A stretch of DNA of 30,473 nucleotides from a virus (taxonomy: Duplodnaviria > Caudoviricetes), in the IMG/VR virus record IMGVR_UViG_3300012942_000105, positions 1 to 30,473 of that record; one strand, given 5' to 3'. A program made the translations under genes and the position numbers. Positions 12,947-21,921 of the stretch are shown in pieces. Numbering within the stretch: position 1 is the stretch's first letter; each line of letters starts with the position of its first letter. The notes under the pieces are model-generated. The model saw nothing but the letters and a program-made list of their open reading frames with translations. It had not been told where the DNA came from and made no database searches.

Positions 12947-14727
12947 TAAAGATCCGCACAGTAACGATGAAGAACTTCCTTAGTGTTGGTAACACCACAC
13001 AGGCGGTTCAACTAGATGAGCATGGATTGACTCTAATCCTTGGTGAGAATGTCGATCAGGGTAGTGGTGGTTCGAGGAACGGGGTCGGTAAAACCACGCT
13101 AGCTCAGGCCATTTGTTATGCGCTCTACGGAGAGGCGTTGACCCAGATCCGTAAGGATAACCTAATCAACAAGATCAACCAGAAGCAGATGAGCGTTTCA
13201 CTGGATTTTGATATTGGTAACAAGAGCTACCGTATTGAGCGAGGCCGCAAACCCAATTTCCTCCGCTACTATGTCAATGATGGTCTGGTTACTCAGGATG
13301 GTGATAATGAAGCTCATGGTGAAAGCAAGATCACCCAGCAGGAGATTGAGAAGACCATCGGTTGTTCACATACACTCTTCAAGCACATCGTAGCCCTTCA
13401 TAGTAAGACCACACCATTCTTGGAAATGAATGCCAAGGATCAACGGGTAGTCATTGAAGAGCTACTGGGTATCACCCAGTTGAGTAGCAAGGCAGAGCAG
13501 CTCAAAGCCCTGATCAAAGAGATCAAGGACGAGATCAAAGGCGAGGAACTGAGGATTAAGATCCTCATTGATAACAATGATCGTATCCAGAAGACGATCA
13601 ATGACCTGAAGTTCAAAGGCACTGTTTGGGATAAGGAACATAGCAAGAAACTGGATAAACTCCAGACTGCGATTGATCAGCTCAAAGAAATCGACATTGA
13701 AACCGAAATCAACAACCAGCGCCTCCTCGTTGAGTTCAATCGTGTTTCGCAAGAAGTGATGCGATTTGAACGTGATGCCGGTCGTGTTGAAAAAGCCTAC
13801 AATGCAGCTGACTCTTCCATCCAACGCCTCGATTTACAGATGGAAGCTGCCAAGGAGAAGAAGTGCCACACCTGTGGCCAAGACGTTCATGACGATAAGC
13901 ACCAGGAGATCCTAGCTGATCTAGTGGCTCACCGTAAGCAATATGAAGAAGAGCGTAGCCAGATCCAAGAAGAGCTCTTTGCAGTGGCTGGTGATCTCGA
14001 GAAAGCTCTTGGAGAGCTCTCGGGTCTTGGTAATATGCCAGAAGTCTCCTACCCCAATATTGAGCAGGCAATGAATCATCGTCATACTCTCGACAAATTG
14101 GAAGCTGATCAACAGCGTGAGACGGCTCAGGATAATCCTTACATTGATCAGATTGCCAACCTGAGCACCAGTGGGTTACAGGATATCTCCTATGATTATT
14201 TGAATGAATTGGTTAGGCTGAAAGAGCACCAGGATTTCTTACTCAAGCTGCTGACCGATAAATCATCATTCATCCGCAAGAAGATCATCGACCAGAACCT
14301 CAGTTACTTGAATGTGAGGTTGAACTCCTATCTGGATAAGATCCAGTTACCACATGAGGTAGTCTTCCAGAGCGATCTAACCGTAGAGATCACCCGACTG
14401 GGTAGAGAGTATGATTTCGCCCAGTTGAGCAACGGTGAACAAAATCGAGTCGTGTTGGCGCTCGCATGGGCCTTCCGTGATGTCTGGGAGACCATGAATA
14501 AGCCAATGAACCTCATCCTGATTGATGAGTTGGTTGATGCTGGTATGGATAGTAAGGGTATGGATCTTGCCCTCGAGATCCTGAAGAAGAATGCGCGTGA
14601 TAGAGGCAAAAACATCTTCCTCATTAGCCACAAAGATGAATTGACATCCAGGGTTCCGAGGGTGCTACTCGTTCAATACGAGAATAACTTCACTACCTAT
14701 ATCACGGATACTGAGCAGAATGACTGA
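12943..14727 (+). CDS. gp46: Recombination ATPase subunit (Rad50/SbcC-like)
   Basis: Walker A NGVGKTT, coiled coil with CHTC zinc hook, LSNGEQ signature, LILIDE Walker B and ISH H-loop. Confidence 0.93.
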
Positions 14728-15604
14728 GATCCTCTATAGCAATGAGGACGCCAGCGTAAACTTTGTAACGCCCCATCCACAAGGTGGGGCGTTCGAGTCA
14801 CGGTATGTCAGGCGCACCCCTGAGTATTTCATCACCTATCTGAGCAGCCACTCTGGTTGTAATAAGGCATGTCGCTTCTGTCATTTGACCCAAACTGGTC
14901 AGACCATGATGGCACCAGCTAGTGTGAAAGACTATGAGCAGCAAGCCCTGGATGTCTTCCGTCATTACCGACAGTTCGATGATGCCCTGAGAGTCAATTT
15001 CAACTTCATGGCACGTGGAGAGCCCTTGGCTAACCCCAATGTACTCACCAGCTGGAATGACGTTCAGAGACCCTTACAGAGCCTAGCAGAACAACATGCC
15101 TTGGTAGGCAAGTACAACATCAGTACGATCATGCCCTCAGAGATGGCAGACCGTAGCCTCTACGATGTCTTTGGTCAATCGGGCGCACAGATCTACTATT
15201 CACTCTACAGCCTCAAACCAGAGTTTAGGAAACGGTGGCTACCTAGGGCCATGGATCCTCATAAGGCTCTCTGGAAGTTGACTGAATGGCAGCAAAAGAC
15301 TGGAGAACTCGTAACCCTCCATTGGGCCTTCATCGAAGGTGAGAATGATGATCTCGAAACACTCGAGAAAATCGTTATGGCCATCCTGTTTCGAGGCCTC
15401 AAGGTGAAGTTCAATCTGGTTCGCTACAATCCATACAGCGAGGCCCAAGGTAGAGAACCGGCCGACGACATCATCCAACGCAACTTCGACTATTTGGCCC
15501 AGGCCTTTGGTAACGAGAAGTCTCGGATAGTGCCTCGAGTTGGCTTTGATGTCAAAGCCTCATGCGGAATGTTTGTCGATGCTACCCACAAGCCTATGCG
15601 CTGA
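14720..15604 (+). CDS. RlmN/Cfr-like radical SAM enzyme
   Basis: [13 protein letters not shown] cluster motif, MARGEP (cf. MGMGEP), NDD, NLVRYNP and C-terminal ASCG (cf. AACGQ). Confidence 0.85.
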
Positions 15605-17026: not shown

Positions 17027-17566
17027 TCAATCTTCCGCTCCACCTAGACGGCGAATTGCGCCTTTATTCTGCTTGAAGAACCCCTCATGAGTCACAATCA
17101 CGTAATCACATGCCTCTGGTGTTCCAAATGACTTGCGATACGTCACATAGGATAGACCAGTAAGATCCAACTCAGACAGGTATTTGGCTTTGAAAGCGGC
17201 CCAGGATCCTTTGCGGGTGATCTTGAAGATGGTAAGCGAGAAATCCTGGTCATCCGCAGGTTCTTCTGTCTGATCAATCCAGGTATCGAGTTGCTTACAA
17301 GATCCGTCAATGATCTGATGAAACGCGATGTCAGCGTAATTCTTGGCCTCAAGATTCAGATAGGGTAGATCGTCTGGAGGAATGATATCACCCTTGGCCG
17401 CTCTCTGCTGACCGCTACTAAGGAACTCCTTACGGAAGACGTTTTTGCCGCCCATGTAGGCTCCTGAGTTAGGAACTCGTTGGAAGTTACCTCCTAGAGT
17501 CTCACCCAAGAAAACGCAGATCTCGCGTTCCCATGAATTGCCCTTCAATTTTGATTTGCTAGTCAT
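17027..17566 (-). CDS. Holliday junction resolvase, PD-(D/E)xK (Hjc-like)
   Basis: SKLKGNSWERE, RVPNSGA, GDIIPP and LEAKNY motifs. Start overlaps the HNH stop (TGATG). Confidence 0.8.
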   Translation of the reverse strand: MTSKSKLKGNSWEREICVFLGETLGGNFQRVPNSGAYMGGKNVFRKEFLSSGQQRAAKGDIIPPDDLPYLNLEAKNYADIAFHQIIDGSCKQLDTWIDQTEEPADDQDFSLTIFKITRKGSWAAFKAKYLSELDLTGLSYVTYRKSFGTPEACDYVIVTHEGFFKQNKGAIRRLGGAED

Positions 17567-18030
17567 CAGATATGACTCCACGATTTTCGATTTACCACAC
17601 ACCTGATAGTTTCTTCAGAAACGCCATAATCAGGAGCCAGTTCTGCTTGGGTATAATAATCAGTGGCATATCGAGACCTAATATCATGAACCTGAGCTTC
17701 AGTTAGCTTCGTGTGCTGTCGCCCTTTTAATACTTTATCAGTCATATTGATTTGGTTAGATCCTAAGAAAAGGTGGTCAGGGTTGATACAGGTTGGATTG
17801 TCACAGGAATGGCAGACATGATCATCAGATCCTATTGGGCCATTATGACAAATATAACTGAGTTGGTGAGTTCCACTTTTACCGTGAACTCTATACCAAC
17901 GATCAACATGGCGACCATATCCATCCTTATCCGTATAACCTGTCCAATTCCAACAACCGTTAGATTGGATAGAAGTTCGAGCGGCCAGATATTCCTTCAG
18001 AGTTCTGGTGTGTTTATGTCCAGATGTCAT
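17566..18030 (-). CDS. Free-standing HNH endonuclease with C-terminal HTH
   Basis: CWNWTG..DGYG, VCHSCDNPTCINPDHLFLGS..NM.D, then KLTEAQV..IR..TQAELA..YGVS..TI. Confidence 0.9.
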   Translation of the reverse strand: MTSGHKHTRTLKEYLAARTSIQSNGCWNWTGYTDKDGYGRHVDRWYRVHGKSGTHQLSYICHNGPIGSDDHVCHSCDNPTCINPDHLFLGSNQINMTDKVLKGRQHTKLTEAQVHDIRSRYATDYYTQAELAPDYGVSEETIRCVVNRKSWSHI

Positions 18031-18057
18031 TGCTACCCTCAAGTTGGATTATGTGGG

Positions 18058-18124: not shown

Positions 18125-18949
18125 ATGGATAAGCGAAATCGTGATCTGACTGTGATGGTGAATGTCTCACCAACCGACAAAGTGCGTTTTCGAGAGTTCA
18201 TGAAACAAGAGCTTGGTTACTACAACGCTCTTGTTGAAGGTCTAGGACCGCGTGCCCGAACTTTCCCCGAGACCCTTATAGCCCTCCACAAGGATTGGCA
18301 GAACCTTTGGTCAGCTTTGGCACAGGGTGGTCACAATCTAAAGCTCTATGAAAAGGCTCCAATGGATATCCAGCTGCCAGCTGATCTGGAGCCGCATCGT
18401 AAGATGCTTGTTGGTCGAGATTCCAAGGGTGAACGATTCCTGAATGATCGCATGTTCAACATCATGAGTATAGCGACCACTCCAGCTTTGATTCATCCTA
18501 TTGTGCGACGGAACATGGCCAACTTGGTTCTTGAATTCTTCAAAGACCAATCCATCAAACTAGCCAATCGCAATGAGAATGCCCTGGGTGAGCAGGATAT
18601 GTATTCCAAGCCTATTGATCTCCTGGTTAAGCATGACCTGGTGACTAAGCGCCACCTACAGATTCCTCGTAACGCGCTTAATGCGGTCTATTACTATGAT
18701 GATCGCGAACTCACGGAGATCTACACTCCTTACAGTGATAACCCTTTGGTGGTTCAGGGCCATGATCTCGAGCACAACAATCACTGGAATCTGATCATCC
18801 TACATCAACAGGCTGGTATGGAAGCTGACCCCACGACCCCTTGGGTTATTGACATCACGTATAACCAGAACCCATACTTACTCCGTTACCAGGATGTTGA
18901 TCAACCAAAGACTGGTAGGATTTTCGCGGCGATGAAGAGCCGTAACTAA
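18125..18949 (+). CDS. Hypothetical protein resembling the TnpB N-terminal (WED/REC) half, with no RuvC domain
   Basis: AAGGAG RBS and ATG at 18125; 274 aa. The ORF itself is solid; the TnpB resemblance is a by-eye motif alignment only. Confidence 0.5.
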   Translation: MDKRNRDLTVMVNVSPTDKVRFREFMKQELGYYNALVEGLGPRARTFPETLIALHKDWQNLWSALAQGGHNLKLYEKAPMDIQLPADLEPHRKMLVGRDSKGERFLNDRMFNIMSIATTPALIHPIVRRNMANLVLEFFKDQSIKLANRNENALGEQDMYSKPIDLLVKHDLVTKRHLQIPRNALNAVYYYDDRELTEIYTPYSDNPLVVQGHDLEHNNHWNLIILHQQAGMEADPTTPWVIDITYNQNPYLLRYQDVDQPKTGRIFAAMKSRN

Positions 18950-19023
18950 TAGGGTAGAGTTACCCTAAGATCGATCTCAGATGTAGCTGAATCGCGCTCA
19001 TTCGGTTGAGCGAATCTGTGTAC

Positions 19024-19029
19024 TAAATA
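19024..19029 (+). promoter_or_regulatory. Late promoter (TAAATA) with no downstream ORF; likely drives the ncRNA
   Basis: Same box as before structural genes; the next credible gene is about 890 nt away and has its own box. Confidence 0.55.
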
Positions 19030-19034
19030 ACCCC

Positions 19035-19600
19035 AAAGAGGGACCACCCACAGATTCTACTTTATAGCCCCTAGATATCCCCTGACACCAATAATCATAA
19101 AAAGAAGCCCCAGAGGAACACTAGGTTCCAACTGGGGCCTTACATAGCTTAACATCCTAGAATCTATCGACACCTTGTCCGGAAGAAGACGGAATGGTAG
19201 CCGCTAGGGGCGAACTGGGTCCTACATTAGTAGGTATGGGTATTACCCTACGACACACCAGTATAAACAAAGCCAGTGGGGAAAACGCTGGTGGTGATCC
19301 GAGAAGCAACCTGGGGTGCAAACCGACTTTCCCCTGGGCTCTGGTTCTTCGTAGGAAGTGAGGCCACCGGTGACCCGGAACCTCACAGCCGAGTCTGGGC
19401 TACTTGAAAGGTCTAGGTCTCGGTACCGCCATAACTCAGAGTTCCTATCTGAAAAGCCGACAGGATGACCCCGGCGCTGGTTTACCAGTGATAGTTTCAA
19501 GATCTTGCGACAACCTCTAACTGCAAGGCTGAACTCCCCTCTTGCTGATTCATTTTTGTTTCGGTAAGGGGGGAGTAAAGATCTGTGCTTCCTACCTACT
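19035..19600 (+). ncRNA. Putative large structured non-coding RNA (~560 nt), family unidentified
   Basis: No credible ORF. Many helices: 19067-74/19204-11, 19107-13/19132-38, 19271-84/19328-40, 19351-59/19587-95, 19358-63/19381-86, 19388-93/19419-24, and a 16-bp stem 19533-48/19561-76 with three G-U pairs on the + strand. Confidence 0.65.
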
Positions 19601-19674
19601 GCAAGTCTTACATTCACTCGCAAGCTCGTTCATTCCTCCGCTTCGCTCATCCAGTTATCACCCAGTAATCACCA

Positions 19675-19830
19675 ATTCAAGTGGTCTTTGAATCGAAGAG
19701 TTCATATGGAACTTTCGCAAAGATTCGTGAAGATTTCGCAAAGGATCGCACGGAATTACCGCTCTAAGGATCGCTTCATATCTCAGAGATTCTCACAGAT
19801 CCAATCGCATTGTACGGTTCTCAGAGAACC
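19675..19830. repeat. Cluster of short direct repeats and hairpins
   Basis: TTTCGCAAAG x2 (19713, 19734), AAGGATCGC x2 (19741, 19766), TCTCASAGA x3 (19781, 19791, 19819); hairpins at 19675-19693, 19694-19717 and 19816-19830. Confidence 0.6.
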
Positions 19831-19883
19831 AAGAGATCATGGCGATCATCTATTTGACTGAAATCCTTCGAACTCCATACCGA

Positions 19884-19889
19884 TAAATA
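19884..19889 (+). promoter_or_regulatory. Late promoter (TAAATA)
   Basis: TAAATA 27 nt upstream of ORF 19917. Confidence 0.5.
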
Positions 19890-19916
19890 CCACTATAATG
19901 AGACAATGGTGGTCAT

Positions 19917-20411
19917 ATGCGTCAAAGATTCAATGATCAAAGTGGTGAGTTCGTGGGTTGGAAGTTCAGTCGTACTGAAGCCGCCTATATTTCCTCAAAC
20001 ATCCTGCCATTCCTCAAGGGATCAAATGAGTGGGAATCTAGATTCCTGAGAACCATGGTCGGTGATTTCAACCATGATTTACCCTTCCTATCGATCAAGC
20101 AGAAAGAACGTCTAGACCTCATTCTACGACGTCATGGTATCTCCAATCTTTCTTACCTATGTGATCAGCTTCCTATTGCTCGTTGGAATGGTAATACAGA
20201 TTCACTGATCAACTTCATTAAAGAGATCATGCCCCTGATGGAATGCGAATTCATCTGGTTCTATGAATACAGCCCAGCAGCATTCGCCTATGATAGAACT
20301 CCTCTTGAGATTGCTACCGAGGATCATGACCTATATTTTGGCTTCGTGAGTGAACTTGATGCTGAGATGGTGGTTGCGGAGATAACTCATAGGGTACAAG
20401 CTACCGTCTGA
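19917..20411 (+). CDS. Hypothetical protein
   Basis: 164-aa ORF coupled (TGATG) to RNase H. Confidence 0.7.
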   Translation: MRQRFNDQSGEFVGWKFSRTEAAYISSNILPFLKGSNEWESRFLRTMVGDFNHDLPFLSIKQKERLDLILRRHGISNLSYLCDQLPIARWNGNTDSLINFIKEIMPLMECEFIWFYEYSPAAFAYDRTPLEIATEDHDLYFGFVSELDAEMVVAEITHRVQATV

Positions 20412-20791
20412 TGGAGATCTACTTTGATGGAGGATGCGCTCCTAATCCAGGCAAGATGAGCGCATGTATCGTGATATGTCAGCCAGGTCGTAAAGCCCGT
20501 GCCTTCACGATAAAGGATCTAGGTCAGGGTACCAACAATATAGCCGAGTGGTCAGCTCTTATCTGGGCCATCCTTTGGGCCAAAGATAATTCGGTTGAGC
20601 AATGTGTCGTTATCGGTGACAGCAAGTTGGTCATTAACCAGGCCAGGGGTATGTGGAAGGTCAATAACAAGGTGTTGGCCGATTTGCTCAAAGAGTTCCA
20701 TGAGATCTCTAAGGGTCTTGATCTTGAGTTTCGCCACGTTCTCCGCGATTCCAATCTAGCCGGCATCTACCTAGAGCACGGCACGCTCTAG
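20411..20791 (+). CDS. rnhA: Ribonuclease HI-like protein
   Basis: YFDGGC.PNPG, TNNIAEW.AL, GDSKLVINQ..G.WKV and HV.R..N motifs. Confidence 0.88.
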   Translation: MEIYFDGGCAPNPGKMSACIVICQPGRKARAFTIKDLGQGTNNIAEWSALIWAILWAKDNSVEQCVVIGDSKLVINQARGMWKVNNKVLADLLKEFHEISKGLDLEFRHVLRDSNLAGIYLEHGTL

Positions 20792-21875: not shown

Positions 21876-21921
21876 CATATTTACCGCTTCATTAACTCCG
21901 CAGATAATGCTCCAATAAATA
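21876..21921. promoter_or_regulatory. Divergent pair of late promoters
   Basis: Minus strand: GTTAAT-N7-TAAATA (box at 21878-21883). Plus strand: TAAT-N7-TAAATA (box at 21916-21921). Confidence 0.7.

Follow-up and report, generated by a model that had tools for sequence, protein, structure and literature searches.

We examined a 30,473-nucleotide (nt) stretch of viral DNA (IMG/VR record IMGVR_UViG_3300012942_000105, positions 1-30,473; Caudoviricetes; hereafter the window) and in it a locus at 18125-20791, where the gene of a 274-amino-acid (aa) protein (18125-18949, + strand, ATG at 18125) is followed by a long gap and then by an operon ending in RNase HI. The window carries genes for baseplate, late sigma factor, SbcCD, resolvase, tape-measure-like and portal proteins, as assigned with Pfam and PHROGs, and covers 30 kb from the genome of a T4-like jumbo phage; by late sigma factor, the closest cultured phages are Sinorhizobium phage Phosso (55%), the PA5oct-like phages and Atu_ph07 (47%) and the Serratia phage BF group (42%). 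A preliminary description of this DNA had pointed to the gap as the only one of about 1 kb in a gene-dense window, and at 967 bp (18950-19916) it is indeed the largest between the 31 open reading frames (ORFs) listed from 2345 onward, the runner-up being 224 bp. The gap has two layers, a leader of ~170 nt and then an RNA body of ~490 nt (~670 nt altogether). The locus is real and unusual: a domesticated TnpB variant adjoins a previously undescribed large RNA cassette.

An AlphaFold model of the 274-aa protein (predicted local distance difference test score 94) matches only the WED and REC recognition lobe of TnpB, Cas12f and Fanzor, the comparison with solved structures having been made with VIA-align alone. 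Model residues 2-246 are taken up by the match to TnpB residues 1-173, leaving 27 residues that form a loop and one helix, and no RuvC-sized region is present in the model. This predicted fold bears out the earlier proposal of a RuvC-less TnpB-like protein, and the protein is likely a domesticated TnpB/Cas12 recognition lobe, predicted to lack the nuclease, which we call half-TnpB. Searches of Pfam and PHROGs returned no family for it, and none that was consistent across its relatives. The ESM Atlas gave matches to unnamed giant-virus clusters only (0.91), which we take as a lead and nothing further, and the Foldseek neighbours of the model in BFVD include longer viral "transposases". Also in BFVD is an unnamed viral protein of 280 aa, A0A345MN37 (TM 0.78, 26% identity to the model), which possibly belongs to the family and comes from a sequenced phage, in which case tblastn missed it.

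The family comprises 199 clusters, and at every locus with both flanks readable its gene lies between the resolvase and baseplate-hub genes. Its neighbours are phage core genes; no insertion-sequence or transposon context was seen around the gene, and no CRISPR array in the gap. The best 150 HMMER matches are 96-345 aa long, and a search for homologues of 605-2000 aa, a weak test, found none. Family members are basic (median isoelectric point, pI, 9.3; n = 183). Five queries gave no homologue in cultured phages; none turned up in GTDB contigs, nor in a profile search of Phosso, BF, PA5oct and Atu_ph07.

WED and REC domains like those predicted here (model residues 1-247) are found in the IS200/IS605 TnpB-omega-RNA complexes (ISDra2, 8h1j; ISFba1, 8iaz), in Cas12f and in Fanzor2. 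TnpB takes its omega-RNA from the 3' side of its gene, and the window likewise has a predicted structured RNA 3' of the gene. Unlike TnpB, the window protein lacks the RuvC/ZnF half, shows no transposon context, sits in a fixed phage-core slot and is followed by ~670 nt of exchangeable RNA. A literature search, with most subscription papers outside it, found no description of the protein family or the locus. The family suggests a further fate of TnpB, in which the protein shrank to its recognition lobe and became fixed at one core position throughout a wide lineage of jumbo phages. A non-cutting RNA-binding scaffold of 274 aa would also be of interest to tool builders, if programmable.

Behind the gene lies a conserved leader (18969-19140, +) with a hairpin at 18973-18994, an A-rich linker and a closing hairpin at 19107-19138. 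Its loop at 18981-86 is invariant and complementary to 19057-62, predicting a pseudoknot; since both sides are invariant, the pseudoknot is a prediction on which covariation has no bearing. Compensatory changes occur in 7 of the 18 consensus pairs of the leader (9 aligned near-clade sequences). The leader lies behind the protein in 11 of 11 loci of the near protein clade with readable DNA, namely the window, L002, L004, L014 and L005/L017, where it is followed by an RNA body that we call type A, and L003, L006, L007, L008, L018 and L294, where the body is of a second type, B. The leader model was built on nine of these loci, and the leader was found as well in L004 and L294 (E 1e-32 in L294), both outside the model. 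The model had no match in Phosso or in the distant-homologue genomes G002, G005 and G006, and one weak match (E 0.015) elsewhere in Atu_ph07. A scan for the leader pattern gave 51 loci, 7 of them behind the protein and previously found, the other 44 resembling chance. It is the short leader that tracks the near protein clade. As a separate observation, 20 nt of the first leader hairpin occur amid short repeats in an unrelated 106-kb phage contig without a homologue of the protein (L067:2501-2520; E 0.017), which may be chance.

Within the leader, TAAATA at 19024-19029 (+) is likely a late promoter of the T4 type, a reading in which we assume the T4 late-promoter consensus and which draws on the late sigma gene and on the placement of the motif. 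TAAATA occurs 12 times in the window, 10 of the other 11 copies lying ~10-60 nt ahead of gene starts and one overlapping a start codon.

The preliminary description had further announced a large and long structured RNA after the ORF, and this is borne out as a conserved, covarying (predicted) RNA. The region 18940-19600 folds with a z-score of -6.5 (20 shuffles), a value that by itself is not specific for structured RNA, since one of two coding controls reached -4.2. The type A body (19151-19640, +) has compensatory changes in 36 of 76 predicted pairs over 7 copies, 93.5% of the cells pair, and none of 500 shuffles scored as high; the alignment consists of related sequences and also supplied the structure, so that this covariation, though strong, is not a probability. 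There are 57 G-U and 9 A-C cells, favouring an RNA of the + strand, with a bias in that the structure was predicted on that strand. Rfam gave no match for type A at E up to 1 over the whole window, and two at chance level only at E up to 10. Type B has a 3' domain similar to that of EGFOA RNAs, with 37.5 and 34.8 bits against a gathering score of 37.7 (RF02955), just below the cut-off, and a pattern scan found at least 5 type B RNAs among 120 listed loci, one of them new. A third type, C, is an RNA of ~400 nt after the gene in a distant protein clade (19 loci, 7 aligned, plus L011), in which 54 of 79 pairs covary. The three types are 400-560 nt long and have in common a C-rich/G-rich hairpin near the 3' end; sequence hidden Markov models of A, B and C did not cross-match and thus do not demonstrate common ancestry. 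Large ornate RNAs include ROOL, GOLLD and OLE. EGFOA RNAs are reported to occupy large gene-free stretches and to form oligomers (10.64898/2026.07.01.735769); type B is similar to them in its 3' domain, whereas type A of the window has no Rfam match. The locus and its relatives thus hold at least two large structured RNA types without an Rfam family (A here, and C in distant phages, where the check covered L011 only) in addition to the EGFOA-like type B.

The RNA body is an independent cassette, as follows from its exchange between near relatives, its second-site copies and its presence in Phosso, where no homologue of the 274-aa protein was found. Loci L006 and L014 share 98.3% identity through the final base of the first conserved leader hairpin, and 97.5% from the start of RNase H; between these flanks L006 carries type B and L014 type A. 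A second site carries type A in each of the three large type B genomes examined (G003, G001 and G004): the copy in G003 is complete (E 3e-93), those in G001 and G004 have an altered or shortened 5' half, and TAAATA lies just upstream of the second-site copy in G003 and G001. In Phosso, a 1-kb gap between resolvase and RNase HI contains a type B RNA, which blastn matched at E 0.006 and whose motifs then proved clearly conserved; its presence makes the role of large phage noncoding RNAs (ncRNAs) directly testable in a cultured phage. Type A had no match in G002, G005, Atu_ph07, Phosso or BF. Among sequencing runs no holder of the RNA was listed, which counts neither for nor against it. The second-site copies (L129:4443-5752, which is G003; L167; L170) are preceded by a conserved ORF of ~250 aa unrelated to the protein, which matches no Pfam family and does not resemble the half-TnpB profile.

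The locus is likely made of two adjoining units, half-TnpB with its leader and an exchangeable large RNA. Our preferred reading of how they belong together, which we regard as possible and a little short of probable, is that the leader is a relic omega-RNA scaffold to which half-TnpB binds, and that the protein thereby gates or stabilises a large RNA made late. A read-through transcript from the protein's gene would fold the leader pseudoknot, and the WED domain would grip it in the way that the WED domain of TnpB grips omega-RNA; the complex, unable to cut, would instead stabilise, process or gate the downstream RNA. The late promoter inside the leader would yield a shorter form of the RNA without the first hairpin, and the body would act late in infection as a structural or scaffold RNA. 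This reading builds on the model match to WED and REC only, on the leader accompanying the near protein clade and on the independence and exchange of the body, from which we infer RNA binding, transcription and a task for the RNA. Three observations weigh against it: the window's own family member is not basic (pI 7.2), distant homologues of the protein do not have this leader, and at the L074/G002 locus the protein is present but no recognised RNA type follows it, although the DNA downstream also folds (z-score of -3.5).

In an alternative, the neighbours are independent: half-TnpB would be a DNA-binding helper that uses no RNA, and the entire gap with its leader would be an unrelated ncRNA locus held in place by core-genome synteny alone. 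The neutral pI of the window's member and the occurrence of body and protein apart from each other agree with it, neighbouring core genes are equally syntenic, and BF and PA5oct/Paride have a gap at this slot with no homologue found in BF or PA5oct. Against this stand the restriction of the leader to the near protein clade, its first hairpin staying with the protein when the rest swaps, and the covarying type C RNA that directly follows the gene in the distant clade as well, and we consider independence somewhat unlikely. The gene-poor gaps in BF (L098:6402-7206) and Paride/PA5oct (L097:7080-8590) have z-scores of about -3.4 and a C/G hairpin at the end; they do not match types A, B or C and are possibly further RNA types in cultured phages. 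Four ncRNAs are reported for PA5oct (PMC7318152), and they do not lie inside the syntenic gap (75.7-77.2 kb).

Going further along the lines of half-TnpB on a leader scaffold, the locus could be a plug-and-play ribonucleoprotein that T4-like jumbo phages made out of a transposon nuclease. In it the bare TnpB lobe on a relic omega-RNA handle would carry interchangeable RNA machines of 400-560 nt (A, B and C), which the phages would swap as cassettes and also store at a second locus; the step served would be a late one, for instance the priming of replication or the assembly of particles. We hold this extension to be doubtful.

Guided DNA binding in the manner of TldR deserves mention on account of the fold, WED and REC being the domains that engage guide and target. 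The dCas12f proteins are reportedly nuclease-dead, domesticated forms of Cas12f. Like TldR and dCas12f, of which phage-encoded examples are described, the window protein appears by its model to derive from TnpB, to have lost the nuclease and to have become fixed beside new neighbouring genes; some C-terminally truncated TldR are reported still to bind DNA by guide (10.1101/2023.11.30.569447). The leader would then be the scaffold and the bases after 19062, or after the body, the guide, with which half-TnpB would block or mark a phage or host promoter without cutting; the sequence after the predicted pseudoknot is variable, but it is A-rich and linker-like. In the complete genome G003, searched against itself, the 14 nt after the pseudoknot had no target at up to 1 mismatch, and the bases after the leader or body ends gave only scattered 15-mers with 1-2 mismatches and no shared flank. 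The window protein differs from TldR in other respects too, its model having no RuvC-sized region, its phage being T4-like and jumbo rather than a prophage, and a large RNA body following the gene. We regard guided binding as quite unlikely.

Just as improbable is an R-loop origin as in ColE1 (RNA II) or T4, in which the large RNA would be a primer precursor, the G tract would anchor the hybrid, RNase H would trim it and half-TnpB would hold the R-loop: an RNA of ~500 nt, a G-rich hairpin near the 3' end of all RNA types, RNase H adjacent in the near clade and Phosso, two such elements ~125-132 kb apart in G003 and G001, and a gap at ~49% of the BF and Phosso records, adjoined in BF by the detrended skew minimum (176.3 kb), all fit. 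In the three complete genomes examined (BF, G003 and Phosso), however, cumulative GC skew tracks gene strand and shows no clear sign of an origin: the extremes of G003 and Phosso lie far from the gap, and the BF minimum falls where a minus-strand block ends. The G tract is also predicted to be paired, the motif suggests a late promoter, distant loci have not retained RNase H, and Atu_ph07 has no such gap ahead of its baseplate-hub gene.

The finer features of the gap fared unevenly. The three hairpins noted after the stop codon do fold, at 18950-67 (-7.9 kcal/mol), 18977-90 (-2.0) and 18995-19012 (-8.2), but among relatives the middle one alone keeps its sequence; the one directly 3' of the stop (18950-18967, +) is variable and is absent in L002. 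The G6 tract at 19568-73 is present as described, but is predicted to be paired inside the C-rich/G-rich hairpin at 19533-19576 (+; -29.8 kcal/mol). An 8-nt word at 19520-19527 and 19598-19605 flanks this hairpin, is nearly invariant in 7 of 7 type A copies and is possibly a protein-binding or tertiary motif. The supposed repeat tract is better called a variable spacer (19641-19883): it is weakly repetitive and not an array, with two-copy families only, and 19620-19900 holds 11 repeated 7-mers against 4.3 ± 2.7 in shuffled sequence (p = 0.03), a richness equalled in 21 of 302 windows across the whole stretch. A primosome-site heptamer on the minus strand at 19638-44 recurs at 21884, was not seen in the aligned relatives or confirmed in the literature, and was rejected.

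Beyond the spacer, a further TAAATA (19884-19889, +) lies ahead of a 164-aa ORF (19917-20411, +), which has no known family and, among distinct related phages, a tblastn match in L002 only, and of the RNase HI gene (20411-20791, +), whose earlier assignment is supported by PF13456 (E 6.5e-12), PF00075 (E 4.3e-9) and phrog_531. With a TAAATA of its own, this operon could be transcribed separately from the RNA. RNase H occupies this slot in the near clade and Phosso and is missing from it in the 10 distant loci examined (L009, L011, L074, L076, L079-L083, L085) and in BF and PA5oct/Paride. The near clade thus has leader, body and RNase H behind the protein, and the distant loci examined are without RNase H in this slot and, in L074/G002, without a known RNA type. 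With the body also occurring without the protein and the repeats marginal, protein, RNA, repeats and RNase H probably do not form the single four-part system once proposed, and RNase H and the spacer likely lie beside the protein and the RNA without being components.

The usual upstream neighbour by synteny is a Holliday-junction-resolvase-like gene (17027-17602, -; PF24608, phrog_244). Between it and the half-TnpB gene the window has an HNH homing-endonuclease-like gene (17566-18042, -); since near relatives have no HNH gene and L074 and L079 carry different ORFs inserted at or near this spot, the site resembles an insertion hot spot. Farther upstream, the SbcCD operon includes a radical-SAM gene (14720-15604; phrog_27142), which is 78-88% conserved in near relatives and for which an RNA-modifying role is a possibility.
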